Part shown: positions 1-61,247 of the stretch, one piece after another | How positions within the stretch are numbered: position 1 is the stretch's first letter | Layout of the letters: each line of letters starts with the position of its first letter | Assembly (NCBI GenBank): GCA_044230075.1 | Contig: JBGARS010000005.1 | Span: 52,799-116,798 of the forward strand | Length of the DNA: 64,000 nucleotides | Direction of reading: 5' to 3' | Origin: Planctomycetota bacterium | Lineage (GTDB): Bacteria > Planctomycetota > UBA1135 > UBA2386 | Notes under the pieces: model-generated | Told to the model about the DNA's origin: nothing | Database searches by the model: none | Seen by the model: the letters and a program-made list of their open reading frames with translations, nothing else | Made by a program: the position numbers and the translations under genes

Positions 1-885
1 GGGAGCACGGTCACCCTGATCGACTACGACGGCGACGGCAGGCTCGACATCGTGTTCGGCGCTGGCGGGGGCCAGAGCCTACGGCTGGTGCACAACCAAC
101 TGCCGTCACCGTTCGTCGACGTCACCAACAGCCTGCTGCCGACGATGGCGGCGACCGCTACCACGATCGACGTCGACCGCGACGGTCGCCGCGACCTCTT
201 GTGCATGGACGCCGGTGGACTTCGGGTGTTCCGTTTCGTGGCCGGCGCGTTCGTCGAGGAGACCGCCCTGCGCATTCAACCGCCGTTGTTCGGCAACCTG
301 CCAGCCGTCGCCGACATCGACGCGGACGGTTGGGAGGACTTGGTCGGCCGCGATGCGCCGGTGCGATGCAACCAGAACGGCGTGTTCGTGCCCTACGTCG
401 GGTGGACACCTCTGTCGACGGCTGGTGCGACGGGCCAGCAGGTGCAGGCCTCCGCCTTCGGTGACTTCGACGGGGATGGTGACACCGACATGATCGTCGG
501 CTTCGGCGCACTGCGGAACCGGACTCGTGATCTGTTCGTCGCTCGGCCGTGGCGGCTCGGCATGCAGTCGGAACTGGTGCTGCAGGCGTACGGTGGTGAC
601 GGCATCGACCCGCAGTTCGCGTTGCTGATGCTGGCCAACGAGAAAGCCAACCCGGCGCTGCCGCTCCCGGGCATCGGCACACTGCGGCTGGACCCAGCCA
701 CCCTTCTGCTGCACTCGCTGCACGTATTCCCTGGCACCGGCGGCGAGGTGTCGGTGTTGTGCCACACACCCCTGATGCCGGGTCTGCTCGGCACCGGCTT
801 CTACACGCAGGCCCTGTTCCTGCACCGGCCCAGCACCGGCGAACTCCGGCTCAGCAACCTCTGCGAACAGCGCATTCGACTCTGA
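1..885 (+). CDS. FG-GAP/VCBS-type repeat protein, C-terminal part (5' end outside window)
   Basis: Frame 1 is open from nt 1 (GSTVTLIDYDGDGRLDIVFG...). It carries repeated DxDGDGxxD-type motifs (DYDGDGRLD, DVDRDGRRD, DIDADGWED, DFDGDGDTD). The last ~110 aa resemble the C-terminal module shared with four other proteins in the window. Confidence 0.75.
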   Translation, partial: GSTVTLIDYDGDGRLDIVFGAGGGQSLRLVHNQLPSPFVDVTNSLLPTMAATATTIDVDRDGRRDLLCMDAGGLRVFRFVAGAFVEETALRIQPPLFGNLPAVADIDADGWEDLVGRDAPVRCNQNGVFVPYVGWTPLSTAGATGQQVQASAFGDFDGDGDTDMIVGFGALRNRTRDLFVARPWRLGMQSELVLQAYGGDGIDPQFALLMLANEKANPALPLPGIGTLRLDPATLLLHSLHVFPGTGGEVSVLCHTPLMPGLLGTGFYTQALFLHRPSTGELRLSNLCEQRIRL

Positions 886-1028
886 TCAGAGGGCGGGGCG
901 GTTTGGTGTAGCTCCCGGAACGCGCCCCATCGTGAGCGCGGCAGCCGGATTCGAGGCCCGCCGCCGGAATCCGGTCACATGCAGGGGGGCCTCGGTCGCT
1001 CCAGGGGGAACCAAACCGAGGCCAACCC

Positions 1029-2654
1029 ATGTTCCCACTCGACCAGACCGTCTCCTCCTGCCTGTTCGGCTCGGCGTTGTCGCTGCTGTGCGCACCACTC
1101 GCCGCCCAGACCCATCTGATACTCGACGCCAACCCCGGCAGCGCCGGTTCGAGCACGAATGCGATCGCCGTGCTCGGCGAGCGGGCGATCTTCGCCGCGA
1201 TCGATGCCAGCGGCACGACGCTCTATTCGTCCGACGGCACGGCGGGCGGCACGACCGTCGTGCTGGCGGCGGGCACGATCTCGGCACCGGCGGAGATCGT
1301 GACCGCCGGCGACCGCGTGTTCTTCCCGGCAGGCACTTCGGCGACCGGCCTCGAGTTGTGGTCCTCCGATGGCACGACGGCGGGCACCGGCCTGGTGAAG
1401 GACATCCGGCCCGGCCCGTTCGGCAGCAACCCGCGAGCGCTCGCCGAGGTCGACGGCGTGCTCTACTTCGCGGCCGCCGAAGCAGGTGCCAACTACGAGC
1501 TGTGGCGCTCGGACGGCACCGACTCCGGCACCTGGCTGGTGAAGGAGATCCACACCACGCCGGGCACGGGTTCGAACCCGGCCGGCTTCACCAGGCTCGG
1601 CACGACCGGCAGCTTCCTGTTCGCCGCGACCGATGCGACCAGCGGCCGTGAGCTGTGGATCAGCGATGGCACCGCCGCGGGCACGTCGCTGGTCGCGGAC
1701 ATCGTGCCGGGTCCCGGCGGCGTCGCGTCCAGCAACCCGCTGTTCCTGGTCGCGTTCGGCGATCTCGTGGCGTTCGCGAAGGCGGACGAACTGTGGCTCT
1801 CGGACGGCACCGCCGCCGGCACCCATTCGCTGCTGACGTGTTCGCCGCGCCAGCTGGCGGTGCAGGGCGGCAAGCTGTTCTTCCAGGGCTACGACGCCGC
1901 GCACGGCAATGAACTCTGGGTCAGCGATGGCACGACCGCCGGCACGCATCTGCTGCTCGACATCTACGTCGGTGGTGTGCCGGCCTGGGGCAGCTTCCCG
2001 TTCGTGCTGACGCCGATCGGCAGCCGCTGGGTGTTCTTCTCGGCGTTCGACGCGTTCGGCGAAGAGCTCTGGCGCACCGATGGCGCGGTCACCGAGATGG
2101 TGCAGGACGTCAACGTCGGCTCGGCCTCGAGCTCGCCGCAGGCGAACGGCTATCCCGCCACGCACCTGCTGAACAGCCGCTTCGCCGTGACCGCAGCCGG
2201 CAAGATGTTCTTCGTCGCCAACGATGGCATGCACGGTCTCGAGCCGTTCGTGTTCGACACCGGCCTGCTCGCCGAGAGCACGCCGTTCGGCATCGGCTGC
2301 GGCGGCCTGTCGCTGACGGCGTCGCTGCCCTACATGGGCAGCATGGTGGACCTGACCACGACCGGTGTGCCGGCCACGACGGCGCTGTCGGTGAACCTGC
2401 TGAGTCTCACTGGCTACGACCCACCGATCGACGTGAGCTTCCTCGACATGCCGGGCTGCCACCTGCACTGCGGGCTCGACATCATGACCGTGCTGTTCGG
2501 CACCGGCACCGTGGTGCACACGCTCGACGTGGCGGACGACCCGACCTGGTTCGGCCTGGAGATCTTCAGCCAGACCTTCTCGTTCGTGCCCGGCATCAAC
2601 CCGTTCGGCGCGATCGGCAGCAACGGCGTGAAGCTGGTGGTCGGCGACCTGTAG
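1029..2654 (+). CDS. Secreted ELWxxDGT-repeat protein (541 aa)
   Basis: Signal peptide (…LLCAPLAAQ). At least six repeats of the ELW(S/R/I/V)SDGT(x)AGT…V(K/A)DI motif with 'GxxxSNP' spacers. The shared Cys-bearing C-terminal module is at nt 2286-2651. Confidence 0.85.
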   Translation: MFPLDQTVSSCLFGSALSLLCAPLAAQTHLILDANPGSAGSSTNAIAVLGERAIFAAIDASGTTLYSSDGTAGGTTVVLAAGTISAPAEIVTAGDRVFFPAGTSATGLELWSSDGTTAGTGLVKDIRPGPFGSNPRALAEVDGVLYFAAAEAGANYELWRSDGTDSGTWLVKEIHTTPGTGSNPAGFTRLGTTGSFLFAATDATSGRELWISDGTAAGTSLVADIVPGPGGVASSNPLFLVAFGDLVAFAKADELWLSDGTAAGTHSLLTCSPRQLAVQGGKLFFQGYDAAHGNELWVSDGTTAGTHLLLDIYVGGVPAWGSFPFVLTPIGSRWVFFSAFDAFGEELWRTDGAVTEMVQDVNVGSASSSPQANGYPATHLLNSRFAVTAAGKMFFVANDGMHGLEPFVFDTGLLAESTPFGIGCGGLSLTASLPYMGSMVDLTTTGVPATTALSVNLLSLTGYDPPIDVSFLDMPGCHLHCGLDIMTVLFGTGTVVHTLDVADDPTWFGLEIFSQTFSFVPGINPFGAIGSNGVKLVVGDL

Positions 2655-2751
2655 CGACGGGCACGAGCTCGCGGTTCGATCCGCCGCCGGGCCGACGGTT
2701 GCGGGTCGCGCCCTTGTCTGTGGCTTGCCGTCTCCGGCATAGTCGCACCCG

Positions 2752-4005
2752 ATGGCAGACACCTCGGGCCCCCGGACGTCGCTGGACCGGGCCAGCATCT
2801 CGATCCTTCTGCTCGAAGGCATCCACAAGAGCGCCATCGAGTTGTTCCACGCCGACGGCTACACGCAGGTCGTTGCGCACGAGAAGGCGCTGCCGGCCGG
2901 CGAACTGCAGCGGGCCCTGGCTTCGGTGCACATGCTCGGCATCCGTTCGCGCACGCAGCTCACCGACGAAGTGCTGGCCGCGGCGCCGAAGCTGATGGCG
3001 ATCGGCTGCTTCTGCATCGGCACCAACCAGGTGGCGCTCGACGTCGCGCGCCGGCGCGGCATCCCGGTGTGGAACGCGCCGTTCTCGAACACGCGCAGCG
3101 TCGCCGAGCTGGTGCTGGCGGAGATCGTGCTGCTGCTGCGCGGCATCCCGGCCAGGAACGCAGCCGCGCACCGCGGCGAGTGGATCAAGTCGGCGGCCGG
3201 TTCGCGCGAGGCGCGCGGCAAGGTGCTCGGCATCGTCGGCTACGGCCACATCGGCACGCAGGTCGGCGTGCTCGCCGAGGCCTTCGGCATGCAGGTGCAC
3301 TACTACGACATCGAGGCCAAGCTCGCGCTCGGCAACGCGACCGCGGTGCGCAGCCTCGATGTCTTGCTCGAACAGGCCGACGTGGTCACCTTGCACGTGC
3401 CAGAGACGGCGCAGACGCGCTGGATGATCGGCGCGGCGCAGCTCGCGCGCATGAAACCGGGCGCGTCGCTGGTCAACGCCTCGCGCGGCACCGTCGTCGA
3501 CCTCGACGCCGTCGCCAAAGCACTCGAGTCAGGGCGGCTCGCCGGTGCTGCGATCGACGTGTTCCCGCAGGAGCCGGAGTCGAACGACGCCGGCTTCGAG
3601 TCGCCGCTGCGCCGCTTCGACAACGTGATCCTGACGCCGCACGTCGGCGGCAGCACCGCCGAGGCGCAACAGAACATCGGCGGCGAAGTCGCCAGCAAGC
3701 TGCTGCGCTACAGCGACAACGGCTCGACGCTGACGGCGGTCAACTTCCCCGAGGTGTCGCTGCCCGAGCACACCGGCAAGCACCGCCTGCTGCACATCCA
3801 CCAGAACCGGCCCGGCATGCTGTCGCGCGTCAACGAGGTGTTCTCGAGCCAGCAGGTCAACGTCACCGCGCAGTTCCTGCAGACCGACGCCGAGATCGGC
3901 TACGTGGTGATCGATGTCGACCCGGGTGACCGCGACGACGCGCGGGCGCTGCACGGCGCGTTGGATGCCATTCCGGGCACGGTGCGCACGCGGCTGCTGT
4001 ACTGA
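2752..4005 (+). CDS. serA: D-3-phosphoglycerate dehydrogenase with C-terminal ACT domain (417 aa)
   Basis: Full-length resemblance to E. coli-type SerA: NAD-binding GIVGYGHIGTQVG, catalytic-region motifs SRG and TPHVGGST, and an ACT-like tail (HRLLHIHQNRPGMLSRVN). Confidence 0.93.
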   Translation: MADTSGPRTSLDRASISILLLEGIHKSAIELFHADGYTQVVAHEKALPAGELQRALASVHMLGIRSRTQLTDEVLAAAPKLMAIGCFCIGTNQVALDVARRRGIPVWNAPFSNTRSVAELVLAEIVLLLRGIPARNAAAHRGEWIKSAAGSREARGKVLGIVGYGHIGTQVGVLAEAFGMQVHYYDIEAKLALGNATAVRSLDVLLEQADVVTLHVPETAQTRWMIGAAQLARMKPGASLVNASRGTVVDLDAVAKALESGRLAGAAIDVFPQEPESNDAGFESPLRRFDNVILTPHVGGSTAEAQQNIGGEVASKLLRYSDNGSTLTAVNFPEVSLPEHTGKHRLLHIHQNRPGMLSRVNEVFSSQQVNVTAQFLQTDAEIGYVVIDVDPGDRDDARALHGALDAIPGTVRTRLLY

Positions 4006-4049
4006 GAACGTTCCGCCGGCGCGCACGGGCCGCTACGCTCTCTGCCCCG

Positions 4050-5774
4050 ATGCGCCTGTCCCAGATCCTGATCTCCACCCTGCGCGACGACCCCGCCGAC
4101 GCAGAGATCCCCAGCCACAAGCTGCTCGCCCGCGCCGGCCTGATCGTCAAGACCGCGGCCGGCGTCTACACCTATGCGCCGCTGATGTGGCGCGTGGTGA
4201 AGAAGTTCGCGCAGATCGTGCGCGATGAGCTCGACGCCGAGGGCGCCAACGAAGTGATGCTGCCGATCATCCAGCCGAAGGAGCTGTGGGTCGCGAGCGG
4301 CCGTTGGGAGCGCTACGTGCGCGACGGCATCATGTTCACGCTGAAGGACCGCAAGGGCACCGACATGTGCCTCGGGCCGACGCACGAGGAGGTGATGACC
4401 GCCTACGTGAACGCGCAGGTCAACAGCTACAAGCAGATGCCGGTCAACTGCTACCAGATCCAGGACAAGTTCCGCGACGAGATCCGGCCGCGCTTCGGCC
4501 TGATGCGCGGGCGCGAGTTCCTGATGATGGACGCCTACTCGTTCGACGCCGACACCGCGGGACTCGACGTCGCCTACCAGAAGATGCGCGCGGCCTACTG
4601 CCGCATCTTCGAGCGCTGCGGCCTCCAGTACACCGTCGTGCAGGCGGACAGCGGCGCGATCGGCGGTGCTGGCAGCGAGGAGTTCATGGTGATCGCCGAT
4701 TCCGGCGAGGACTCGATCCTCTACTGCCAGGAGAGCGGCTACGCGGCCAACGTCGAGAAGGCGCAAAGCGTGCTGCCCGACGCGCCCGCCGGCGGCGAGC
4801 CACGGTCGATGCAGAGGATCGCCACGCCCGACGTGAAGACCGTTGCACAGCTCGAAGCGTTCTTCCCCGGCTGGGTCGCGGGCCGCATGGCGAAGACCCT
4901 GATCTACCACGTGACGTGGAAGGACAAGGAGAAGGTGATCGCGGTGATGATGCGCGGCGACCTCGAACTCAACGAGGTCAAGCTGGTCAACGCGCTCGAC
5001 GCGCTGACGGTGCGCCTCGCCACCGACGAGGAGATCAAGGCCGCGACCGGTGCCGACACCGGGTTCGCCGGGCCCGTCGGCCTGCCGGAGTCCGTGCCGC
5101 TGCTCGCCGACGAGTCGCTGAAGGAGCGCACCAACCTGCTGGTCGGCTGCAACGAGACCGGCTTCCACTGCCTCGACGTCAACCTCGGCCGCGACTGCCG
5201 CATGCCGTCGTGGAAGGAGCTGCGCCTCGCGCGCGCCGGCGAAGGTTGCCCGGTGTCCGGCAAGCCGCTGCAGCAGGCGCGCGGCATCGAGGTCGGCCAC
5301 ATCTTCAAGCTCGGCATCAAGTACAGCAAGGCGATGCAGGCGACGTTCATGGACCAGGGCGGCAAGCCCACACCGTTCGTGATGGGCTGCTACGGCATCG
5401 GCGTGTCGCGCACGCCCGCCGCCGCGGTCGAGCAGAACTTCGACGACAAGGGCATCGTCTGGCCGCCCGCGATCGCGCCGTTCGAGTGCGTCGTGGCGAT
5501 GCTCGATCCCAAGCGCGAGGAGCAGGTCGCGCTCGCCGACAAGCTGTATGGCGAGCTGAAGCAGGCCGGCGTCGACGTCTGTCTCGACGACCGCGCGATG
5601 AGCCCCGGCGCGAAGTTCAAGGACAACGAACTGCTGGGGTTCCCGGTACAGGTGTTCGTCGGCAGGAAGGCCGCGGAGGGACAGGTCGAGTTCCTGGTGC
5701 GGCGCGGCATGGTGAAGAGCGAGTGTGCGGCGGGGGAAGTGCGCGCCAAGGTGCTGGCGGCGTTGGGGCGGTAG
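4050..5774 (+). CDS. proS: Proline--tRNA ligase, bacterial type with editing insertion (574 aa)
   Basis: MRLSQILISTLRDDPADAEIPSHKLLARAGLI…, class II motifs (FRDEIRPRFGLMRGREFLMMDAYSF; GCYGIGVSR), and an insertion domain between motifs 2 and 3. Confidence 0.95.
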   Translation: MRLSQILISTLRDDPADAEIPSHKLLARAGLIVKTAAGVYTYAPLMWRVVKKFAQIVRDELDAEGANEVMLPIIQPKELWVASGRWERYVRDGIMFTLKDRKGTDMCLGPTHEEVMTAYVNAQVNSYKQMPVNCYQIQDKFRDEIRPRFGLMRGREFLMMDAYSFDADTAGLDVAYQKMRAAYCRIFERCGLQYTVVQADSGAIGGAGSEEFMVIADSGEDSILYCQESGYAANVEKAQSVLPDAPAGGEPRSMQRIATPDVKTVAQLEAFFPGWVAGRMAKTLIYHVTWKDKEKVIAVMMRGDLELNEVKLVNALDALTVRLATDEEIKAATGADTGFAGPVGLPESVPLLADESLKERTNLLVGCNETGFHCLDVNLGRDCRMPSWKELRLARAGEGCPVSGKPLQQARGIEVGHIFKLGIKYSKAMQATFMDQGGKPTPFVMGCYGIGVSRTPAAAVEQNFDDKGIVWPPAIAPFECVVAMLDPKREEQVALADKLYGELKQAGVDVCLDDRAMSPGAKFKDNELLGFPVQVFVGRKAAEGQVEFLVRRGMVKSECAAGEVRAKVLAALGR

Positions 5775-5870
5775 GGGAAGGGGGGCTTCTCGCGTCGCGC
5801 AGGGGTCGCTACCGTGCGCGGCCTGCATGCGTCGCGATGGGCGAGCGCTGCGTCGAGAAGGACTCCCTCC

Positions 5871-8405
5871 GTGCGATCGAAACCCACCCCTGCGTTGCTG
5901 CCGCTGCTCTGCTTCGTGTTGGTCGCCGGCTTCGCGCCGGCGCAGTGCGACCTGGAGTGGGCGCCGGGTGACGGTTTGCCCGGCACCAACGGTACGGTCT
6001 ACGCGACTACATCGTGGGATCCGGATGGCGCCGGGCCTGCCGACCCGCTGGTGGTCGTCGGCGGCCACTTCGATCGCGTCGGCCCGCTGGCGACCCCGAG
6101 CATCGCGGCATGGGATCCGGCGACTGGCACTTGGAGCGCGTTCGGCAGCGGCATCCTCGGCAGCGTTGCGGCGCTGGCCGTGATGCCGAATGGCGACCTC
6201 GTCGCGGGTGGCTACTGGATCACGCCCGGCGGCACCGTGATCGATCGCATGATGCGTTGGGACGGCACGGGCTGGGTGCCATTCGGCTTCGGCACCGTTG
6301 GCAGCGTGATGTCGCTGCTGGTGACGTCGAGCGGTGACCTGCTGGTCGGCGGTGACTTCGACTTGGCCGGCGGCGTGCCGGCCAGCGGGATCGCGAAGTG
6401 GGATGGCTCGTCGTGGTCGCAGTTCGGCGTGGCTCCGGGCATCACCACCAGCACGGGAACGCGGCTCGTGAATGCGCTCATCGAGTTGCCGACCGGCGAC
6501 ATCGTCGTCGCCGGTCGCTTCACGCACGCTGGCGGTGCTGTGGTCAACAGCCTCACGCGCTGGGACGGGACCACATGGCAGACGTTCGGCCCGGGCCTGC
6601 CGCCGGGCGGGCTCGACCAGATCCGCGTGTTGCACCGGCTGCCGAACGGGGACCTGATCGCCGGTGGCCTGTTCTTCAGCATCGGCGGTGTGATCGTCAA
6701 CCACATCGCGCGCTGGGATGGCGCCACCTGGCACCCGCTCGGATCCGGCGTCAGCTGGGCGATGAACGGCTCGGGTGTGTATTCGGTGAGCGCGCGACCC
6801 AACGGCGACCTCGCGGTCGGTGGTTACTTCACGCAGGCCAGCGGCCAGTCGGCCAACGGCATCGCGCAGTGGAACGGCAGCAACTGGGCGCCGATGGCCG
6901 GCGGTGGCTCCACCAACACGCAGCTCGTGTTGCCGAACGGCGACCTGATCGCCGGCGGTGCGTTCAAGGGCACCGGCGAGGGAGTGTCCCGCTGGGACGG
7001 CACCGCCTGGAATGCCCTGGCGACGGGCTTCAACGATCGGATCACGAGCCTCGCCGTGCTGCCGAACGGCAACGTCGTGGCTGGCGGCTACTTCACCTAT
7101 GCCGGTTCCGGGCCGGTCGGGCGGATCGCCGTCACGGATGGCACCTCCTGGTCATCGCTGGGTTCGGGCATGACATCGACGACGCTGTCCTCTCCCTACG
7201 TGCGGTTGCTTGCGGTGGCACCGAACGGGGACCTGTTCGCGGCGGGCTACTTCACCCACGCGGGGGGTGTGGCTGCTGCGGGCATCGCGCGCTGGGACGG
7301 AACGGCGTGGTGGCCGCTGGGCGCCTTCAACAACTCCTCGCTGAATGCGATGCTGGTGACGTCCAACGGCGACCTGGTGGTGGCGGGCAACTTCAGCACC
7401 ATCGGCGGCGTCACTGCGAAGGGCGTCGCTCGCTGGGATGGTGTTGCCTGGCACGCAATGGGTGCTGGCATGACCTCGACGGTGCGCGCGTTGGCCGTGC
7501 TGCCGAACGGCGATCCGGTTGCCGCCGGCGACTTCCTGATGGCCGATGGCGTGGTGGCCAATCGGGTCGCGAGCTGGGACGGTACGACGTGGGCGCCACT
7601 CGGCGCCGGTCTGCCGGGCAACGCGTCGAGTCTGGTGGTGATGGCGAACGGCGACCTCGTCGCCACCGGTACGTTCGGCATGAACCAGCGATGGAACGGC
7701 AGCAGCTGGAGTTCGCTCGGCTCCGGGCTGGCTGGCGCGCCCAATGCCCTGTTGTCGTTGCCCAACGGCGACCTCTTGGCTGGCGGGTTGTCGTCGCTGG
7801 TGACCGTCTCGGGACTGGTGACGATGGCGCGTTGGTCGGCCGGATCGTGGACGCCGTTGCCGACCTGGCCGGCCGGGAGCGTGCTGGCGATGGTGCGACA
7901 GGTCGACGGCAGCATTGCGGTGGGTGGCACCTTCGCTGCGGTTGGCAGCCAGACGTCGGCGTACCTGGCTCGCCTCACCAGCCCATGCCCTGCGGCGGTG
8001 ACCGGCTTCGCCGCCGGTTGTCCCAGCTCCGGGGGCAGCAATACTCTCACTGCCGTGACCCTGCCGTGGGTCGACAGCACGTTCCGCGCCACCGGCACCG
8101 GTCTGCCGACGTCGGCGATCGTGCTCGCGCTGACCAGCGTGAACGCCGTCGCGCCGCCGCTGGCGCTGTCGTCGGTGTTCGCCGAGGCGCCGGTCGGTTG
8201 CGACCTGCACGTCGCACCCGATATCGTCGAGACGCTGTTCACTGCGAACGGCACCGCGACCTCGCAGCTGTTCCTGCCGAACACACCGCCGCTGGTCGGC
8301 GTGACCTTCTTCCACCAGATGGTGCCGATCGAGGTCGATCCGCTGCTGAACTTCGTCCAGATCACGGCGACCAACGTGCTGCAGCTGACCGCGGGACAGT
8401 TCTGA
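5871..8405 (+). CDS. Secreted protein of ~14 tandem 47-aa Kelch-like beta-propeller blades plus shared C-terminal module
   Basis: The ORF is open from 5814. An in-frame GTG at 5871 preceded by GAGAAGGA gives a clean signal peptide (RSKPTPALLPLLCFVLVAGFAPAQ). The repeat unit is W(D/N)GxxWxxLGxGxxxxVxALxxLPNGDLVAGGxFTxAGG. C-terminal module at 7986-8402. Start uncertain. Confidence 0.8.
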   Translation: MRSKPTPALLPLLCFVLVAGFAPAQCDLEWAPGDGLPGTNGTVYATTSWDPDGAGPADPLVVVGGHFDRVGPLATPSIAAWDPATGTWSAFGSGILGSVAALAVMPNGDLVAGGYWITPGGTVIDRMMRWDGTGWVPFGFGTVGSVMSLLVTSSGDLLVGGDFDLAGGVPASGIAKWDGSSWSQFGVAPGITTSTGTRLVNALIELPTGDIVVAGRFTHAGGAVVNSLTRWDGTTWQTFGPGLPPGGLDQIRVLHRLPNGDLIAGGLFFSIGGVIVNHIARWDGATWHPLGSGVSWAMNGSGVYSVSARPNGDLAVGGYFTQASGQSANGIAQWNGSNWAPMAGGGSTNTQLVLPNGDLIAGGAFKGTGEGVSRWDGTAWNALATGFNDRITSLAVLPNGNVVAGGYFTYAGSGPVGRIAVTDGTSWSSLGSGMTSTTLSSPYVRLLAVAPNGDLFAAGYFTHAGGVAAAGIARWDGTAWWPLGAFNNSSLNAMLVTSNGDLVVAGNFSTIGGVTAKGVARWDGVAWHAMGAGMTSTVRALAVLPNGDPVAAGDFLMADGVVANRVASWDGTTWAPLGAGLPGNASSLVVMANGDLVATGTFGMNQRWNGSSWSSLGSGLAGAPNALLSLPNGDLLAGGLSSLVTVSGLVTMARWSAGSWTPLPTWPAGSVLAMVRQVDGSIAVGGTFAAVGSQTSAYLARLTSPCPAAVTGFAAGCPSSGGSNTLTAVTLPWVDSTFRATGTGLPTSAIVLALTSVNAVAPPLALSSVFAEAPVGCDLHVAPDIVETLFTANGTATSQLFLPNTPPLVGVTFFHQMVPIEVDPLLNFVQITATNVLQLTAGQF

Positions 8406-8470
8406 GTCGCCGGGCGCGGTGCCGCCACACGGTGCTTCCCGCCGGCGGGCCGCCGCGCTGCAATGCGCGC

Positions 8471-9982
8471 ATGTTCCGCGCCTGCCGTTCGGTGCTTCTG
8501 CCCACCCTGCTCGCCGTCGCCGCCGCTGGCTGCACCACGCCGGTGTCGATGGACCAGCCGCCCGCCTACGCGCGCACCGGCCAGGAACAGCTGCCGTATG
8601 AACAGCAGAACCAGGCCTGGCGCTGGCTCGACGTGATGCAGGAGGCGGCGGCGCGCGACGTCGATGCGTTCGGCGCGCGGCCGACGGTGCTGTCGCGGCA
8701 GATGATGTTGTGGGCCGTCGCGATGTTCGACGCGTGGGCGGCCTACGACGCCACCGCCGTCGGCACGTGCTTCGGCGGCGCGTTGCGGCGCCCGTCTGCC
8801 GAACGCACGCAAGCCAACAAGGGGATCGCGGTCAGCTACGCGAGCTACCGCGCGCTGGTCGGCGCGTTCCCGGCGCAGCGAGGCTTCCTGCGGGCGGAGA
8901 TGCAGCGCCTCGGCTTCGATCCAGACGATGCGTCGACCGACGTCACGACGCCGCAGGGCATCGGCAACGTGGTCGCAACCGCTGTGCTCGAGCGCCGGGC
9001 CGACGATGGCGCCAACGCCGATGGTTCCATGCCCGGCGGCGACGGCACGCCGTACGGCGACTACACCGGCTACCGGCCGGTCAACCCGGTCGATCGCATC
9101 GTCGACCCCGACCGTTGGCAGCCGATCGAGTTCACGCGGCCCGATGGCACGAAGTTCACGCCGGGCTTCCTGACGCCACAATGGGGTCTGGTGCGGCCGT
9201 TCGCCTTGCTGTCCGCCGACCAGTTCCGCGCCGAGCCGCCGCCGACCACGAAGTCCGCCGATGCCGAGTTGCGCGCGCAGACGGCGAGGGTGCTGCAACT
9301 CAACGCGACGCTGAGCGAGGCCGACAAGGCGCTCGTCGAGTTCATGCGCGACGGCCCGCGCTCGACCGGCCAGAGCGGCCACTGGCTGCGGTTCGCGCAG
9401 GACGTCTCGCGCCGCGACGGCAACGACCTCGACCGTGACGTGAAGCTCTACTTCGCCGTCGCGGTCGCCGCGTTCGACGCGTTCATCACCTGCTGGGAGA
9501 CGAAGCGGCACTACGACACGTCGCGGCCGTGGACGCTGGTGCGGCACTACTACCGCGGCCAACTGGTGCGCGGCTGGGCCGGACCCGAGGGTGGCACCGT
9601 CGAACTGCCGGCCGAGCAGTGGCACCCGTACTCGCCGTTGCTGTTCGTCACGCCGCCGTTCCCCGGCTACACGAGCGGCCACGCGACTGTCAGCGGCGCC
9701 TGCTCGAAGATCCTCGAGCTGTTCACCGGCAGCGATCGCTACGGCACCAAGGAAGTGCGCCGCTGCTGCGTGCTGACCGAACAACACGCCGGCAGCATCG
9801 CGACGCTGGACCTGCCGACGTTCTCGGCCGTGGCCGAGATGGCCGCACGATCGCGCGCGATGGGCGGCTACCACATCCCGATCGACAACGACGTCGGGCT
9901 GCGCATCGGCCGCGAACTCGCGACCTGGTCGTGGCCGCGCTACCAGCAGTGGTTCGACGGCACGGCGGTGCCGGCGCGCTGA
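8471..9982 (+). CDS. PAP2-superfamily lipoprotein, vanadium-haloperoxidase/acid-phosphatase-like (503 aa)
   Basis: Internal ATG of ORF 6398..9982. Lipobox LLAVAAAGC. All three PAP2 motifs are present: K-x6-RP (ETKRHYDTSRPW), SGH (PGYTSGHATV) and SR-x5-H-x3-D (ARSRAMGGYHIPIDND). Confidence 0.8.
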   Translation: MFRACRSVLLPTLLAVAAAGCTTPVSMDQPPAYARTGQEQLPYEQQNQAWRWLDVMQEAAARDVDAFGARPTVLSRQMMLWAVAMFDAWAAYDATAVGTCFGGALRRPSAERTQANKGIAVSYASYRALVGAFPAQRGFLRAEMQRLGFDPDDASTDVTTPQGIGNVVATAVLERRADDGANADGSMPGGDGTPYGDYTGYRPVNPVDRIVDPDRWQPIEFTRPDGTKFTPGFLTPQWGLVRPFALLSADQFRAEPPPTTKSADAELRAQTARVLQLNATLSEADKALVEFMRDGPRSTGQSGHWLRFAQDVSRRDGNDLDRDVKLYFAVAVAAFDAFITCWETKRHYDTSRPWTLVRHYYRGQLVRGWAGPEGGTVELPAEQWHPYSPLLFVTPPFPGYTSGHATVSGACSKILELFTGSDRYGTKEVRRCCVLTEQHAGSIATLDLPTFSAVAEMAARSRAMGGYHIPIDNDVGLRIGRELATWSWPRYQQWFDGTAVPAR

Positions 9983-9988
9983 CGAGGA

Positions 9989-10021
9989 CCGGCACCACAA
10001 CGTCGTAGTGGTTGGTGCCGG
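9989..10021 (+). terminator. Hairpin after the PAP2-family gene
   Basis: CCGGCACCA (9989-9997) pairs perfectly with TGGTGCCGG (10013-10021) across a 15-nt loop, 7 nt after the stop. There is no U-tract. Confidence 0.4.
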
Positions 10022-10068
10022 ACACCCGCCGATGGTCGGCAGCGACCTTCGCCCGGTATCCTGCCGCG

Positions 10069-10329
10069 ATGGGCCTCGACTCGGTGGAGTTGGTGATGGC
10101 GTTCGAAGACGAGTTCGAACTCACCATCCCCAACGATGTCGCCGCGATGCTGATGTCGATCGGCGACGTCGTGTCCTGGGTCACGGCGCAGCGTGCCTGG
10201 CTCGGCCGGCCACTGCCGCGCGACGAGGTGTTCGATGTCGTGTGCCGGCTCACCTGCGAGCAGTGTGGCACGACCCGCGATCGGCTCACCGGGAACACCT
10301 GCTTCGTCGCCGATCTCGGCATCGATTGA
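10069..10329 (+). CDS. Orphan acyl/peptidyl-carrier-protein-like protein, apparently circularly permuted (86 aa)
   Basis: It begins MGLDSVELVMAFEDEFELTIPND… (phosphopantetheine-site DS(L/V)xxxE helix II) and ends …EVFDVVCRLTCEQCGTTRDRLTGNTCFVADLGID*, which looks like carrier-protein helix I running into the next DLG(I/L)D. The 10012 start of the ORF track overlaps the upstream hairpin, so I prefer ATG 10069. Confidence 0.55.
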   Translation: MGLDSVELVMAFEDEFELTIPNDVAAMLMSIGDVVSWVTAQRAWLGRPLPRDEVFDVVCRLTCEQCGTTRDRLTGNTCFVADLGID

Positions 10330-10591
10330 CCCGGTGTCACACCGCGCGCCGCGGCTGGCGTCGCACAGGCCCGATCGAGTTGGCGCCTGCGGCGCAACCT
10401 CGCCACGGACCCTTCCGGTGCTCGGCGGAGCTCGACGTCGGTCGTACGCACGGCCATCATTTGGTCGGCCGCATTCGCACGGTGGTTAGGTGGTTGCATG
10501 GAGTGCGCGCCAGGGCGCACGACCGCTAGACTCGCGCGCGAGAAGGGTGCCCAGCCCCTCGGTTCTCGTCCCGAAGGTGTAGTTGCCAACC

Positions 10592-13114
10592 ATGAAGTCC
10601 TTGCCACCGCTGCGTACGCAGTTCGTCTCCTTGTTGTGGATGGTGTTGTTCGTGGCCGCCGTGGTCCGGCCGGTCCGCGCCCAGTGTGACACGCCGTGGT
10701 TGCCGATCGTGCCCGGTGTCGGCGGCGACGTGTTCGCCACCGCGCTGTGGGATCCCGATGGTCCAGGTCCCGCACCGCTGCGCCTCGTCGTCGCGGGTGC
10801 CTTCAACGTCGCTGGCGGTGTCACCGCCAGCAACATCGCCAGCTGGGACCCGCTGACTGGCGCCTGGTCGCCGCTCGGCCTCGGCACCAACGGTACGGTC
10901 GTCGCGCTCGTCGAACTGCCGAACGGTGACCTCGTCGCCGCCGGCAGCTTCACGACCGCGGGCGGCATCGGCGCGTCGCGCGTCGCGCGCTGGGACGGCA
11001 CCAGCTGGGCGCCGCTCGGCAGCGGTGCCAACAACGACGTGCGCGTGTTGCGGGTGCAGTCGAACGGCAACCTCGTCGCGGGCGGCTTCTTCACCAGCGC
11101 CGGCGGCGTCGCCGCGAACCACATCGCGTCGTGGGACGGCGTCGCCTGGTCGCCGCTCGGTGCCGGCACCGACGGCTTCGTCTACACGATGACGCTGCTC
11201 GGCAACGGCGATCTCGTCGCCGGCGGCTTCTTCTCGAGCGCCGGCGGCAACCCCGCCGAGCGCGTCGCGCGTTGGGACGGGACCGCATGGTCGGCGCTCG
11301 GCGCCGGCGCCACCGCGCCGGTCTATGCGTTGGCGGCGATGCCGAACGGCGACGTGGTCGCCGGCGGTGCGTTCACGATCGCCGGCGCTGCGCCGGCCAG
11401 TCGTGTGGCGCGTTGGAACGGCAGCGTGTGGCAGCCGCTCGGCACGGGCGTCAACAACCTGGTGCGATCGCTCGACGTGCTGCCCAACGGCGACCTGGTC
11501 GCGGGCGGTACCTTCACCACCGCGGGTGGTGTGGCCGCAGACCGCGTGGCGCGCTGGAACGGCACCGCGTGGGCGCCGATGTCGGGCGGCATGAACAGCG
11601 CCGTCTACACGCTGACGTCGATCGGCGGCGGCTACCTGGTGGCGGGCGGCAACTTCTCGTCCGCGGGCGGACTCGCGGCCAACCGCGTCGCGTTCTGGAC
11701 CGGCTTCGAGTGGGTGCCGTTGGGCTCGGGCATGAACGGGTCGGTGCTGGCGCTCGGCGTGCAGCCGAACGGCGGCCTCGTCGCCGGCGGACAGTTCCTG
11801 ACTGCCGGTGGTGCGGTCGCCAACCAGGTGGCGCGTTGGAACGGTGCCTCGTGGTCCGCGCTCGGCGCGGGCACCAACGACGTCGTGCGCGCCCTGACCG
11901 TCACCAGCAACGACGACGTCTTCGCCGGCGGGGACTTCACCGCGGCCGGCGGGTCGGCGGCGGCGTTCGTGGCCAGGTGGGACGGCGCTGCCTGGTCGAC
12001 GCTCGGCATCGGCACCAACCAGCCGGTCGAGGCGCTGCTGGCGCTGCCGACTGGCGACGTCGTCGCCGGTGGAGCGTTCACGCTGGCGGGCGGCGTCGCG
12101 GCGGCGCACGTGGCACAGTGGGACGGAACCTCGTGGTCGGCGCTCGGTGCCGGCACCGACGGCACCGTGCAGGCGCTGGTGCGCATGCCGAACGGCGACC
12201 TCGTGGCCGGCGGCTCGTTCGCCAATGCCGGCGGCGGCGCCGCCGCCAACATCGCACGCTGGGACGGCGCGGCCTGGTCGCCGTTGGGGCTCGGCACCGA
12301 TGGCTCCGTCGAGGCGCTGTTCGTGCTCGGCAACGGTGACCTCGTCGCGGGCGGCGCGTTCACCAACGCCGGTGGCGCGCCGGCCCAGCACGTCGCCCGC
12401 TGGAACGGTGTCGCCTGGGCGGCACTCGGCAGCGGCGTCAGCGACAACGTGCAGGCATTCAGCGTGCTGCCGAACGGCGACCTGGTCGTCGGCGGCCGCT
12501 TCACGATCGCCGGCGGCGCCGCTGCCGAGCACGTCGCGCGCTGGAACGGAGCCGCATGGTCGACCTTCGGCTCCGGCATGGACGCGGACGTGTCCGCGCT
12601 GATCGCGCTGCCGAGCGCCGAGATCGCGGCCGGCGGCGCCTTCACCCTCGCCGGCGGCAATCTGTGCGCCTACATCGCGCGGCTGACGACGACCTGCCCG
12701 GCAACCGCGGCCACGTTCGCGAACGGCTGCCCGAGTTCTGGCGGCAACAACCTGCTGACGGTCACGGGACTGCCCTGGGCCGACGGCACGTTCCGCACCC
12801 ATGGCTCGGGCCTGCCGAGCCTCGCCTTCGTGGTCGGCGTCGTGAGCCTGGCGCCGCTGGTGCCGGCGCTGCCGTTCACGCAGGTGCTGGCCGAAGGCGT
12901 GCCCGGCTGCTTCCTGCACGTCGAGCCGGACATCCTCGATGCGTCGTTCACGACCAACGGCATGATCGACACGGCTCTGTTCCTGCCCAACGCGCCGCCG
13001 CTGGTCGGCGTGCAGTTCCACTACCAGCTCGTGCTGCTCGAGGTCACGCCGTCGCTGGCGTTCGTTGCGGTCACCAGCACGAATGCGCTGCAGCTGACGG
13101 TGGGTTCGTTCTAG
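10592..13114 (+). CDS. Paralogue of 5871..8405: secreted ~14-blade Kelch-like repeat protein with shared C-terminal module (840 aa)
   Basis: ATG 10592 gives the signal peptide MKSLPPLRTQFVSLLWMVLFVAAVVRPVRAQ. It has 13-14 units of (A/V)ARW(D/N)GxxWxxLGxG…LPNGDLVAGGxFTxAGG. The C-terminal module at 12695-13111 is ~50% identical by eye to that of the paralogue. Confidence 0.8.
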   Translation: MKSLPPLRTQFVSLLWMVLFVAAVVRPVRAQCDTPWLPIVPGVGGDVFATALWDPDGPGPAPLRLVVAGAFNVAGGVTASNIASWDPLTGAWSPLGLGTNGTVVALVELPNGDLVAAGSFTTAGGIGASRVARWDGTSWAPLGSGANNDVRVLRVQSNGNLVAGGFFTSAGGVAANHIASWDGVAWSPLGAGTDGFVYTMTLLGNGDLVAGGFFSSAGGNPAERVARWDGTAWSALGAGATAPVYALAAMPNGDVVAGGAFTIAGAAPASRVARWNGSVWQPLGTGVNNLVRSLDVLPNGDLVAGGTFTTAGGVAADRVARWNGTAWAPMSGGMNSAVYTLTSIGGGYLVAGGNFSSAGGLAANRVAFWTGFEWVPLGSGMNGSVLALGVQPNGGLVAGGQFLTAGGAVANQVARWNGASWSALGAGTNDVVRALTVTSNDDVFAGGDFTAAGGSAAAFVARWDGAAWSTLGIGTNQPVEALLALPTGDVVAGGAFTLAGGVAAAHVAQWDGTSWSALGAGTDGTVQALVRMPNGDLVAGGSFANAGGGAAANIARWDGAAWSPLGLGTDGSVEALFVLGNGDLVAGGAFTNAGGAPAQHVARWNGVAWAALGSGVSDNVQAFSVLPNGDLVVGGRFTIAGGAAAEHVARWNGAAWSTFGSGMDADVSALIALPSAEIAAGGAFTLAGGNLCAYIARLTTTCPATAATFANGCPSSGGNNLLTVTGLPWADGTFRTHGSGLPSLAFVVGVVSLAPLVPALPFTQVLAEGVPGCFLHVEPDILDASFTTNGMIDTALFLPNAPPLVGVQFHYQLVLLEVTPSLAFVAVTSTNALQLTVGSF

Positions 13115-31083: not shown

Positions 31084-31110
31084 CCGGGTGGGTGCGAGGG
31101 TCTGCCGCGG

Positions 31111-49111: not shown

Positions 49112-52717
<3,606 letters not shown>

Positions 52718-52850
52718 GCGGTTCCTCGAGCTGTGCGCCGTGCGACGCGATGGATGCGCCCATGGTCCCCCCGGTCTGGGTCGGTTTCGTGTGGGTCGTG
52801 GGGCGTAGGCCATATTGGCGCGGCCCGGGCCGACGGAGAGAATCCGGCGC

Positions 52851-53441
52851 ATGCTCGAGGCTGTGCACATCCCGTTGTCGACGCAGCCGGTGATGCCGTG
52901 GGCCAACGGTGGCGGCACCACGCGCCAGATCGCGATCGACCCGCCGACTGGTTCCCTGGCCACTGGGTTCCGCTGGCGTGTCAGCACCGCGCAGGTCGCC
53001 CGCGACGGCCCGTTCTCGCGGTTGCCGGGGGTCAACCGATCGATGTGGCTGCTGCGCGGCGCGGGCATGCGGCTCGACGTCGGCGGCCGCGAGGTGCGGT
53101 TGGATCGGCCGCTGCAGCGCTTCGACTTCGCCGGCGAAGTGCACGTCGTCGCGCATCTGATCGACGGTCCGGTCGCCGACCTCAACGTCATGGTCGCCCG
53201 CGATCAGGTGCGCGCCGACGCCGCCTTGCGCGCATTCGCACAGGGCGCAGCGATCGACGTCCAGGCCGGGGCGCCCGCCTTGCTGTGGCTGTTGGATGGC
53301 CGCCTGGCGACGCCTGGTGGCGCGGTCGCGAGTGGCGGCGACGCGTTCCGCCTCGATGGCTCAGAGCCGCTGGTCCTGCGTGCCGAAGCGGCCGGGCGAC
53401 TTCTGGTCGTGCGATTCTCCGGGATCGGTGCACGACCGTGA
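52851..53441 (+). CDS. hutD: HutD/Ves-family protein (196 aa)
   Basis: …[18 protein letters not shown]… (the W-x-NGGG-x-T-x-x-I motif). ATG 52851 is preferred over TTG 52815. Confidence 0.78.
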
Positions 53442-53631
53442 GCTCCGATCATGTCAACATGGCGCGTCAATACACTGTCATGCCAAGATGGCGGTGCCAG
53501 GGTCTCGAACGCGGCCGCACCCGCAATCCCAAACCAACGGTGGCAAAGGGGTAACCACCATCTGGCCGCCGGGCACGTGTTCTGCTCTCGGCGCCGATAC
53601 TCACCGCATCACCCAGCCGAGGAGAACCCAC

Positions 53632-56256
<2,625 letters not shown>

Positions 56257-56354: not shown

Positions 56355-57479
56355 TCAGTCGACGCGGATGGCGACGCCGTTCGACCACGACATGCCGCCG
56401 GGCACGTTCTCGAGGCAGACGTGCTGCACGTGCACCAGCGAGGGCCCGGCCGAGGCCGGCCACGTGAAGCCGAACTGCATCTGCGCCGGCCCCGTCGGCC
56501 CCGACACCATCACGAAGGAGCCGTCGATGCTCGTGTAGAGCGTGCACCCGAGGGTGCCGAACACCGGATCGAGCAGCAACGGCAACGGCACGCCGAGATA
56601 CTGCAGCGAGTCGCCGCCGAAGACGATCAGCCCGACCGAGTTGGCGGCGTGGTTCGTCGACGTCGTGGCCAGGTAGCCGCCGATGTGCGGCGTTCCGGTC
56701 ACCGACAGGACGACCGGTCCATACTCGCCGTCGCAGCCCTGGCCGTACGGCGCGATGTAGGCCCCGAGCGGCTCGATGCCCCGGAAGTCGACGGGGCCGC
56801 CCCCGCCGCCGCTGGTCATCGGCCCGAGCAGGGTCGTTGCGCCGGTCGCCACGTCGACGACGTAGAGCGAGTCGACGCCGGCGCTGTCGCCGCCGCCGAC
56901 CAGCAGTCGGCCATCCGGATGCGAGCACAGCGACTGCAGGTATGGGGGCACGACGCCGCCGGGGAACGGGTCGGTCGCCGCGCCGGTCGTCGGGTTCACG
57001 ACCAGCAGCCCATCGAACACATCCCAGGCGTAGAGCACGCCCTGGTGCGTGGCGAGGCCCTGGATCCCGGTGAACCCGCAGGCGCCGATCGTCGTGACCA
57101 GGCCGTTCGAGGTGTTGATCCGCACCAGCAGATCGGAGCTCGCGCCGTCGCGCACGCCGTACAGGTCGCCGCCGGGCCCCTGCGACAGCCCGCGGATGTC
57201 GTAGCACCCGGAGAAGAACGTGCCCGCGCCGGTGTTCGGATCGACCGTCACCAGCGCGAACGAGGTGCTGGAGAGGCGCTGCACCGACCAGTAGGTGCCG
57301 CTGGCCGAGCGGGCGAGGCAGTTGAGCCCCGCCAGGCCCGACCCGACCGGCACGGTCGCACCGCTGTGCGAGTCGATGCGCACAACCTGGCCGCCCCAGG
57401 CGACGCCGAGCAGGTCCTGGGCCGACACGGGCGCCGCGGCGCAGAGCACGGCGACGAAGAGATCACGGATTGCTGTCAT
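56355..57479 (-). CDS. Secreted beta-propeller repeat protein ending in the shared C-terminal module (374 aa)
   Basis: Met at 57479 gives the signal peptide MTAIRDLFVAVLCAAAPVSAQ. Repeats of the type (L/V)Y(G/A/V)V…L(V)(R/V)(I/V)N…TG…T. C-terminal module at 56358-56747 (…YGQGCDG…GTLGCTLY…WSNGVAIRVD). Confidence 0.75.
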   Translation of the reverse strand: MTAIRDLFVAVLCAAAPVSAQDLLGVAWGGQVVRIDSHSGATVPVGSGLAGLNCLARSASGTYWSVQRLSSTSFALVTVDPNTGAGTFFSGCYDIRGLSQGPGGDLYGVRDGASSDLLVRINTSNGLVTTIGACGFTGIQGLATHQGVLYAWDVFDGLLVVNPTTGAATDPFPGGVVPPYLQSLCSHPDGRLLVGGGDSAGVDSLYVVDVATGATTLLGPMTSGGGGGPVDFRGIEPLGAYIAPYGQGCDGEYGPVVLSVTGTPHIGGYLATTSTNHAANSVGLIVFGGDSLQYLGVPLPLLLDPVFGTLGCTLYTSIDGSFVMVSGPTGPAQMQFGFTWPASAGPSLVHVQHVCLENVPGGMSWSNGVAIRVD

Positions 57480-58975: not shown

Positions 58976-59917
58976 TCAGATCACGCGCAAGGCGAGGCCG
59001 CGCGATGCCACGCGACGCACTTCGGCATCGCGCTCCGTGCACAACAGGTCGCGCACGGCCAGTTCGCTGCGCGGCCCCGGCACGCCCAGCAGTACGTCGA
59101 CCGCGGCCGCGCGCACCGTCGCCTCGGGCGACGACAGCCACCGCATCGCGTCGTCGGCGACGCCGGGATCGTGGGCGCTCGCCAGCGACCGCAGCAGAAC
59201 ACACACGCGGTCCGGCGTCGTCGCCCGGCAGAGTTCGTCGCGCAGTCGATCACAGCATTGCCGGTGCAGGTCTGGCTGCGCGACGGCGAGCGCGCCCGCC
59301 GCTCGGGCGAACGCGAGCACCGCTGCGCGAGCCGTGGGCGACTCCGCGTGCGTGTGCAACCAGAGCATGGCCAGCGTCGCCGTCATCGGCTGCGTCACGC
59401 CACCGAGCGCACGCAGCGCGGACTCCCGCAGCGAGGCCGGTGTCGAGTCGGCAGCAACGATCGCACCGAGCGACGCCTGGCATGCCGGGTCACCCATGCA
59501 CTGCATGGCCTGCAGCAGGCGCACACGGGCGCGTGCCGGCCGCGTCGGCAAGAGGATCGAGCTTGCGAACGCTCGCGCCAGGTCGGGCTTCTCACGCAAC
59601 AGATCTCGCAGTGCGACGACCTGCTCCGCTCCGTCGTCGCCGGCATCGAGCGCCCGCACGAGCGCGGCGAGCCGGTCGTCGGCGGTCGCCACCGCAGCTG
59701 CGCCCGCGGGATCGGCTACCGCCACGTCGTCGCGCACCGAGATCCCCTGCACACACTGCTCGCCGGCGATCGGCAACGGGGTGTGCTCGGGCCGCTGCGC
59801 GGGTTCGCCACGGCCCATCGGCGGCGGCATCGGGTCCGCCGTCTGGACGAATGCGGTCGCGACCGCGCACGCCGTCGTGACGGCGATCGCCGCACCGAGC
59901 AACCGGCGCGCGTTCAC
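58976..59917 (-). CDS. Secreted HEAT-repeat-like protein (313 aa)
   Basis: The GTG at 59917 overlaps the upstream stop (GTGA). Signal peptide (LLGAAIAVTTACAVATA). Repeated helical units with …VR..A…LG motifs. Confidence 0.68.
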   Translation of the reverse strand: MNARRLLGAAIAVTTACAVATAFVQTADPMPPPMGRGEPAQRPEHTPLPIAGEQCVQGISVRDDVAVADPAGAAAVATADDRLAALVRALDAGDDGAEQVVALRDLLREKPDLARAFASSILLPTRPARARVRLLQAMQCMGDPACQASLGAIVAADSTPASLRESALRALGGVTQPMTATLAMLWLHTHAESPTARAAVLAFARAAGALAVAQPDLHRQCCDRLRDELCRATTPDRVCVLLRSLASAHDPGVADDAMRWLSSPEATVRAAAVDVLLGVPGPRSELAVRDLLCTERDAEVRRVASRGLALRVI

Positions 59918-61038: not shown

Positions 61039-61247
61039 GGGGACAGAACAGCGACCCTCGCGTGCGTGTTGCAGTTTCCGCAGCGAGCCAGGTCGCGGCA
61101 GGCTGCCCGGGCCAACCCCACGCGGCGGCGGGCGGGGGAATCCTCCGCTGGCGATGTCCGGTCTCGCCAGGAACGTTGCTGACCGACGGGACTCGGCGTT
61201 CCGCTGAGACGGACCCCGATGCGGCACGCCGCGGAACGGCCAGGCGG

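Follow-up and report, generated by a model that had tools for sequence, protein, structure and literature searches.

What does one and the same C-terminal domain do on five proteins whose remaining parts are unrelated? The question is posed by a 64,000-nucleotide stretch of DNA from a Planctomycetota bacterium (GenBank assembly GCA_044230075.1, contig JBGARS010000005.1, positions 52,799 to 116,798, forward strand; called the window below, by which this whole stretch is meant), in which five genes, P1 to P5, encode proteins that close with a similar module of about 135 residues. How Planctomycetota deliver proteins to their unusual cell surface, and how they retain them there, is poorly understood. 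Here, we report that the five tails are homologous by sequence comparison, that they belong to a very large domain family new to current Pfam and NCBIfam releases, and that the module is possibly a handle for surface targeting or retention, a function which we propose tentatively and weigh against other explanations.

Homology of the five C-terminal tails

Pairwise comparison by BLASTP of the last 150 residues of each protein linked the tails of P3 and P4 (55% identity, E 1e-49) and those of P2 and P3 (36% identity, E 4.5e-11), and the pairwise links of P5 and P1 were marginal. A profile built from 144 external P3-like tails, none of which came from the window, recognised P2 (2.3e-13) and P5 (2.1e-9), in both cases full-length and at the C-terminus. 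P1 was not significant with this profile (E 0.22) and scored E 1.6 with a second, mixed profile, while hhalign of P1 against the P3-like-dominated profiles returned a P value of 0.066, which was reached by 3 out of 30 shuffles.

A different result was obtained with modules of a more divergent kind. These were located by scanning six-frame open reading frames (ORFs) of Planctomycetota loci, where they occurred in neighbouring genes, and seven external sequences from other Planctomycetota metagenome-assembled genomes (MAGs) were combined into a divergent-module profile that holds no sequence from the window. This profile detected all five tails, namely P2 (1.3e-11), P3 (2.7e-10), P5 (5.1e-10), P4 (9.9e-10) and P1 (4.6e-9), whereas the next best of 573 six-frame window segments reached only 0.043; no sixth copy of the module was found by the profile searches of these segments. 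The match of P1 spans positions 36–137 of the 139 in the profile, and hhalign of the P1 tail against the divergent-module alignment gave 93% probability (E 2.7e-7, 97 columns). P1 is bridged to the family by L027, a cysteine-less module that closes a 1,294-residue FG-GAP protein. A metagenome scan with the P1 tail itself yielded two spurious matches and no real relatives.

Because the external divergent-module profile singles out the five tails from all other segments of the window, their homology is confirmed at the level of sequence comparison, with P1 as a divergent subtype that is detectable only through intermediates. A first-pass annotation of this DNA had proposed, from the letters alone, that one C-terminal module closes five proteins of unrelated N-terminal architecture; the E values of 1e-11 to 5e-9 bear this proposal out, and the module boundaries given there were right to within about 20–60 nt. 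The copy at nt 559–885, which had been described as partial or divergent, is so indeed: both conserved cysteines are gone and positions 1–35 of the profile are unmatched, while the conserved Gln and the Ser-Asn pair are retained.

An expanded family at protein C-termini

When 1.84 billion representatives of 50% identity clusters were searched exhaustively with a profile, 7,912 family members were retrieved at E ≤ 1e-3, with 2,755 at E ≤ 1e-10 and 180 at E ≤ 1e-30. In the best 150 of the 7,912 representatives, the match ended 0–5 residues from the C-terminus, and at the MAG loci full-length matches finished 0–9 residues from it, the exceptions being partial alignments and frameshift-split or fragmentary ORFs. 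The module was terminal and single-copy in every match inspected (n of about 190), and no intact tandem or internal copies were met among these. The 176-residue protein P0003, from a 924-nt JGI contig, joins the final third of one module to a complete second one; this is probably an assembly chimera and, if real, would be the sole tandem arrangement seen.

The cargo that precedes the module is diverse. With Pfam or NCBIfam support it comprises DUF5122 (in one- and two-propeller forms), Kelch, FG-GAP, ELWxxDGT and GSDH propellers, as well as RTX repeats and a propeller-fused subtilase; a glycoside hydrolase (GH)-like protein (P0167) and a trypsin-like fragment (P0205) were assigned by eye alone and have no Pfam match. 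An N-terminal signal-like hydrophobic run was present in 100 of the 108 full-length-looking representatives, and in 85 an [AGS]Q adjoined it. One module subtype recurs, at 57% identity, on an unrelated cargo (P0058), and the modules of P3 and P4 are 54% identical compared with 42% for their cargo regions. Since one subtype occurs on unrelated cargos and is conserved above the cargo, the module thus appears, from its sequences, to behave as a mobile unit with selection of its own.

No member of the family carries an informative protein name, and literature searches revealed no description of this domain. Although very large, as the first-pass annotation had anticipated from five copies in one window, the family is new to Pfam and NCBIfam in their current releases, and no relative of it has a solved structure.

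With regard to the hosts, a genome scan, which used P3-type peptide patterns only and to which the taxonomic picture is therefore limited, retrieved 33 loci, all 33 in Planctomycetota MAGs. Three MAGs held at least 7–9 loci each, with extra copies in flanking genes. Module genes are often adjacent or close to each other on MAG contigs, for example L020 and L023 (CAZIFB010000005.1, 31770–44452), L005 and L007 (JAEUHR010000016.1), and L027. This clustering resembles that in the window, where four of the five copies lie within 13 kb, and it suggests local duplication. At one locus (L010, MAG JAEUHQ01; minus strand, 1688–2749 and 1839–4844), the module is split over two frames (…GCDLLVAPD… and …HQLVPIELG…), owing either to a frameshift in the gene or to misassembly.

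Predicted fold and conserved residues

The P3 module was modelled with AlphaFold2 on a 12-sequence alignment. The model has a predicted local distance difference test (pLDDT) score of 95.5 and a predicted template modelling (pTM) score of 0.89, and it consists of 11 beta-strands and one short helical turn; the module is thus confidently predicted to be an autonomous, compact beta-sandwich of about 135 residues. With the family alignment, the model of the P1 tail reached a pLDDT of 73 with eight strands, a result that is compatible with the fold and does not constitute an independent test. Structural neighbours retrieved by Foldseek were weak and generic Ig/FN3-like domains (template modelling (TM) score ≤ 0.5, E ≥ 3e-3), among them the Wzt carbohydrate-binding domain, a Bacteroides putative carbohydrate-binding protein and phage concanavalin-like/FN3 domains. 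The structure prediction and Foldseek search that the first-pass annotation had recommended thus yielded a confident beta-sandwich with neighbours of this general kind only.

Family-wide conservation is limited to a few positions: a G-C after strand 1, a G-C-x-L at strand 6, a Pro and a Gly preceding strand 9, which itself contains an invariant Gln, and a nearly invariant S/T-N before the last strand. The landmarks G-C, a second G-C-x-L-H/Y, Q and the terminal S/T-N, aligned by eye in the first-pass annotation, were all recovered, but the Q follows the second Cys by about 39 residues and not by about 45. The Cys pair, the Q and the S/T-N are present in P2–P5. The pair is conserved in nearly all subfamilies and is missing from the subtype formed by P1 and L027. 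From this conservation and the extracytoplasmic context, we infer that the two cysteines form one disulfide in most members.

Proteins of the P3 type carry further cysteines. Their mature N-terminus starts with Q-C, after a signal peptide of the form ...AxA↓QC (the arrow marks the cleavage site), in 88 of 108 full-length representatives, and a third Cys stands at the junction between propeller and module (T-C-P-A), so that three Cys occur in the last 140 residues of 112 out of 146 sequences. The odd Cys count of these proteins suggests a disulfide clasp that may tie the N-terminus to the junction and close the propeller. The 'AQC' motif was also considered as a lipobox and was rejected, because Q at position -1 misfits a lipobox, while AxA↓Q suits signal peptidase I.

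The five proteins and their surroundings in the window

The features are compiled in Table 1.

Table 1. Module-bearing proteins of the window and the extent of their C-terminal modules (positions in the 64-kb stretch; numbers in scientific notation are E values).
Feature	Position	Strand	Description
P1	1..885	+	FG-GAP repeat protein; stop codon 883–885; N-terminus lost at window edge; Pfam FG-GAP_3 1.1e-14, FG-GAP 7.2e-10
P1 module	502..882	+	Divergent, no conserved Cys; profile-supported part 574–876
P2	1029..2654	+	541 aa; predicted signal peptide; ELWxxDGT-repeat protein; TIGR04534 5e-96, 8 repeats
P2 module	2265..2651	+	Found by external profiles and by BLASTP to P3 tail
P3	5814..8405	+	About 14-blade DUF5122/Rax2-type propeller; predicted signal peptide ...APA↓QC; start codon uncertain; Pfam DUF5122 1.4e-21, Rax2 3.3e-18
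P3 module	7980..8402	+	Profile of 144 P3-like tails, 9e-66; copy used for structure model
P4	10583..13114	+	P3 paralogue, propeller; predicted signal peptide ...VRA↓QC; Pfam Rax2 4e-32, DUF5122 9e-23
P4 module	12689..13111	+	Profile of 144 P3-like tails, 1.3e-59
P5	56355..57479	-	374-aa secreted protein; ATG start 57479; predicted signal peptide ...VSA↓QD; weak DUF6923/DUF4394-like N-terminal domain
P5 module	56358..56765	-	Separate subfamily, pattern GC..LPLLLDP..GTxGC..Q..GGxSWSN

The gene models of P2 and P5 are exact matches to products already in the public collection, and the P2 product is also present on an ENA metagenome contig (ERZ27275390). Signal peptides had been assumed for all five proteins; P2–P5 do show a hydrophobic N-terminal segment followed by an AxA↓Q-type site, and the N-terminus of P1 is cut off by the window edge. 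The description of P3 and P4 as Kelch-like 14-blade proteins had to be corrected, as their matches are to DUF5122/Rax2-type (delta-60-like) repeats and not to Kelch. Their repeat period is 47 residues, and W[DN]G motifs recur every 47 residues in P4. No Pfam or NCBIfam match covers the last 135 or so residues of any of the five proteins.

Two exported proteins of the window with a lipobox-type motif lack the module, at 8480–9979 (+; ..AAAGC..) and 59917–61350 (-; ..LVAAC..); one combines DUF6851 with a VCPO/PAP2-like part and the other is an NHL/SGL-type propeller. In this small sample, which is anecdotal, predicted lipoproteins, anchored otherwise, are thus without the module.

Other large genes include one for an 892-residue protein in which a Ser/Thr protein kinase domain is joined to a C-terminal FGE-sulfatase (SUMF1-like) domain (28435–31110, -) and a 1,363-residue single-chain pyruvate:ferredoxin/flavodoxin oxidoreductase (49115–53203, -) that adjoins clpB (53296–56256, +), with no secretion genes nearby. 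Long antisense or out-of-frame ORFs of 600–940 residues lie over real genes, for instance at 975–2837, 3900–6734 and 7247–10000, all on the minus strand. By third-position G+C, which is 0.81–0.98 in the retained frames, most real frames can be told apart, yet a few short ORFs that are out of frame pass too. The long overlapping ORFs are artefacts of the 70.0% G+C content of the window and not genes. This G+C content agrees with the 67–70.5% of the Saltatorellus/Rohdeia clade (bioRxiv 10.1101/817700), and the phylum-level relatives are likewise in keeping with that clade, which makes an affiliation with it a lead and no more.

A possible role in surface targeting or retention

The function that we tentatively favour, and which we judge to be possible though somewhat short of probable, is that of a C-terminal handle for surface targeting or retention that would fold in the periplasm and probably be disulfide-bonded. 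According to this proposal, Sec would export the proteins that bear the module, and the module would then fold in the periplasm, in most cases around one disulfide. Once folded, it could be recognised by an outer-membrane translocation or attachment machinery; alternatively, the module itself may bind a component of the envelope and hold its cargo there. The common handle would thereby set the final location of the cargo, by analogy with the type IX secretion system's (T9SS) C-terminal domain (CTD). This proposal draws on position, copy number, range of partners and analogy, and we count in its support the terminal single copy, the shuffling of cargos, the signal-like N-termini, the expansion in one lineage and the confidently predicted fold. 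The two predicted lipoproteins that lack the module and the Akkermansia sulfatase described below point in the same direction, the former anecdotally and the latter as a lead.

Several observations speak against this proposal. Neither a translocon nor a sortase-like peptidase nor an anchor partner had a candidate among the window ORFs scanned, and no secretion genes of any kind were seen among them; instead, the module genes sit among housekeeping genes (serA, proS, clpB and, by eye, an acyl carrier protein-like ORF). Few residues (G-C, G-C, P, G, Q, S-N) are conserved throughout the family, most of them apparently for structural reasons, and the subtype of P1 and L027 does without the disulfide cysteines. 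Most cargos are beta-propellers, and it is common for propellers to bear an Ig-like accessory domain at the C-terminus on purely structural grounds. Furthermore, no T9SS CTD chains were present among the 50 structural matches listed for the P3 or the P1 model.

An extension of the handle proposal would make the module the recognition or attachment signal of an undiscovered sorting system of Planctomycetota, possibly of the wider Planctomycetes–Verrucomicrobia–Chlamydiae (PVC) superphylum, that is, a functional counterpart of the T9SS built from unrelated parts. Cargo that is folded and disulfide-bonded would be placed by such a system on the outer membrane or moved through it. We regard this extension as quite doubtful; to our knowledge, no sorting system of the CTD type is known in Planctomycetota.

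Among the explanations that do without targeting, the one that survives best is that of a ligand-binding module, for carbohydrate or for adhesion, which would steer enzymes and propeller proteins to an external polymer or surface and have no part in secretion or sorting. The beta-sandwich fold is in line with this, as are the weak neighbours named above (Wzt, the Bacteroides putative carbohydrate-binding protein and the phage domains); the invariant Q and the nearly invariant S-N are polar and could line a binding site, and some cargos are enzymes or enzyme-like, with Pfam backing for S8 and GSDH only. Carbohydrate-binding modules (CBMs), however, usually occur also in N-terminal, internal and tandem positions, unlike a module that is single and terminal in about 190 cases; no CBM or lectin model of Pfam matched at E ≤ 10, the structural matches stayed at TM ≤ 0.5 and E ≥ 3e-3, and most cargos are non-catalytic propellers, which are binding modules themselves. 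On balance, we consider a ligand-binding role to be rather unlikely.

Quite unlikely, in our estimate, is a purely structural accessory of propeller ectodomains, such as a cap, spacer, stabiliser or oligomerisation unit with no targeting function, for which galactose oxidase and integrin alpha offer examples. Most partners are indeed propellers (DUF5122, Kelch, FG-GAP, ELWxxDGT, GSDH), the P3-type module follows the last blade without a linker, and most members combine the junction Cys (TCPA) with the Cys of AQC, a pairing suggestive of a covalent clasp. Against such a role, the module is also borne by non-propeller cargo (RTX repeats and, by eye, the trypsin-like fragment), a single subtype is found on unrelated cargos and exceeds them in conservation, and a plain structural domain would not usually be expanded so greatly in a single lineage.

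Finally, that the resemblance is a chance or compositional effect of Ala/Gly/Pro/Leu-rich proteins at 70% G+C, at least for P1, is almost certainly wrong, since the non-significance of P1 in pairwise comparison, in the P3-like-dominated profiles (E 0.22 and 1.6) and in hhalign against these (P 0.066) is outweighed by the detection of all five tails by the divergent-module profile, as opposed to 0.043 for the best of the other 568 segments, by the 93% hhalign probability and by the bridge through the Cys-less FG-GAP relative L027; for P2–P5 this explanation is effectively refuted.

Should the module prove to be a handle for targeting or anchoring, it would delineate the surface proteome of a clade that is under-studied and mostly uncultured, and the search for partner machinery would become a concrete co-occurrence problem. 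If there is a dedicated sorting system, its substrates would be the thousands of proteins with the module, and these would offer a way to trace the machinery. Were the module merely a binding or structural unit, it would still constitute a confidently predicted new beta-sandwich family that deserves a curated entry. In each case, a profile is now available for a very large family whose members have so far been annotated by their repeat domains alone.

Comparison with known systems

Searches against characterised domains gave no assignment. The T9SS CTD models PF18962 and TIGR04183 (Por_Secre_tail) and TIGR04131 (type B) matched neither the five full proteins at E ≤ 1 nor 14 diverse modules at E ≤ 10, and the latter had no Pfam match at E ≤ 10 and only two isolated, chance-level models in NCBIfam. 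The profiles of the T9SS CTD, autotransporter, dockerin, PPC and CBM families did not match, and nothing was found by a sequence search of the PDB with the module. The first-pass annotation had asked whether a characterised sorting or carbohydrate-binding domain would be hit, or whether the similarity would prove insignificant on formal alignment; no such domain was found in Pfam or NCBIfam, and the similarity is significant by formal profile alignment.

The same annotation had not recognised the module as PEP-CTERM, Por_Secre_tail, LPXTG or autotransporter, and the absence of Pfam and NCBIfam matches, of a helix and of a basic tail agrees with this. In the last 60 residues no membrane helix was detected (maximum 19-residue Kyte-Doolittle mean 0.65–1.40), and the last 10 residues hold 0–2 K/R, that is, no basic tail. 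Because both elements are missing, signals of the PEP-CTERM, LPXTG and GlyGly-CTERM types were excluded, for which NCBIfam sorting-signal models likewise gave no match. These tripartite signals (LPXTG/sortase, PEP-CTERM/exosortase, GlyGly-CTERM and MYXO-CTERM) are similar in being C-terminal on many unrelated secreted proteins and expanded in particular lineages, but they measure about 25–40 residues, in which a membrane helix and then a basic tail follow a short motif, whereas the module is a globular domain of 135 residues. An autotransporter beta-domain (PF03797), a C-terminal barrel of about 250–300 residues, was rejected as well, given that Pfam showed no match and that the 135-residue module is modelled as a soluble sandwich. 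The terminal residue is F/L/Y/W in 145 of the 146 sequences of the P3 subtype, and the terminal G-x-F was considered as an outer-membrane beta-signal. This ending is restricted to the P3 subtype, and by eye there is no barrel-like alternation of hydrophobic residues; the P5 subtype lacks G-x-F/L/Y, so that this ending is no general beta-signal.

Of the beta-sandwich domains, the C-terminal domain of Wzt (2R5O) shares the general architecture and is among the top Foldseek matches, being the best CBM-like structure; the match is weak (TM 0.37, E 8e-3), and the strictly terminal, single-copy module differs from a CBM in its placement. Membership of a CBM or lectin family was rejected on this structural result and on the lack of a Pfam match. 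The Ig-like or E-set domains that follow propellers, such as domain 3 of galactose oxidase and the thigh of integrin alpha, are likewise beta-sandwiches right behind a propeller, as in most cargos here. The module has no sequence match to them, is borne by non-propeller cargo too and makes up a far larger family, confined to one phylum.

A likeness in kind is also seen with the T9SS CTD of Bacteroidota. That domain is a folded, Ig-like beta-sandwich, and the module is predicted to be a beta-sandwich with generic Ig/FN3-like neighbours; both stand at the extreme C-terminus of proteins that are, or in the case of the module appear to be, Sec-exported, with cargos as diverse as enzymes and adhesin-like repeat proteins. 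Both are found in a single copy per protein and in many copies per genome, with low conservation between subtypes, and each is so far confined to one lineage. They differ in that the T9SS CTD has about 70–100 residues and 7 strands, whereas the module has about 135 residues, 11 predicted strands and a Cys pair, matches no CTD in sequence and is hosted by Planctomycetota, in which we know of no T9SS.

A precedent from the PVC superphylum is the sulfatase Amuc0953 of Akkermansia muciniphila, which a 2026 paper reports to be surface-bound and to have a T9SS-CTD-like last domain; the authors suggest a comparable, undiscovered CTD-dependent system (PMC13524802). As published, this Sec-exported, surface-located enzyme with a C-terminal beta-sandwich (PMC13524802) resembles the proteins described here, and it may serve as a lead, not as a test. 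On the whole, the module resembles in kind the known C-terminal domains that are common to secreted proteins.

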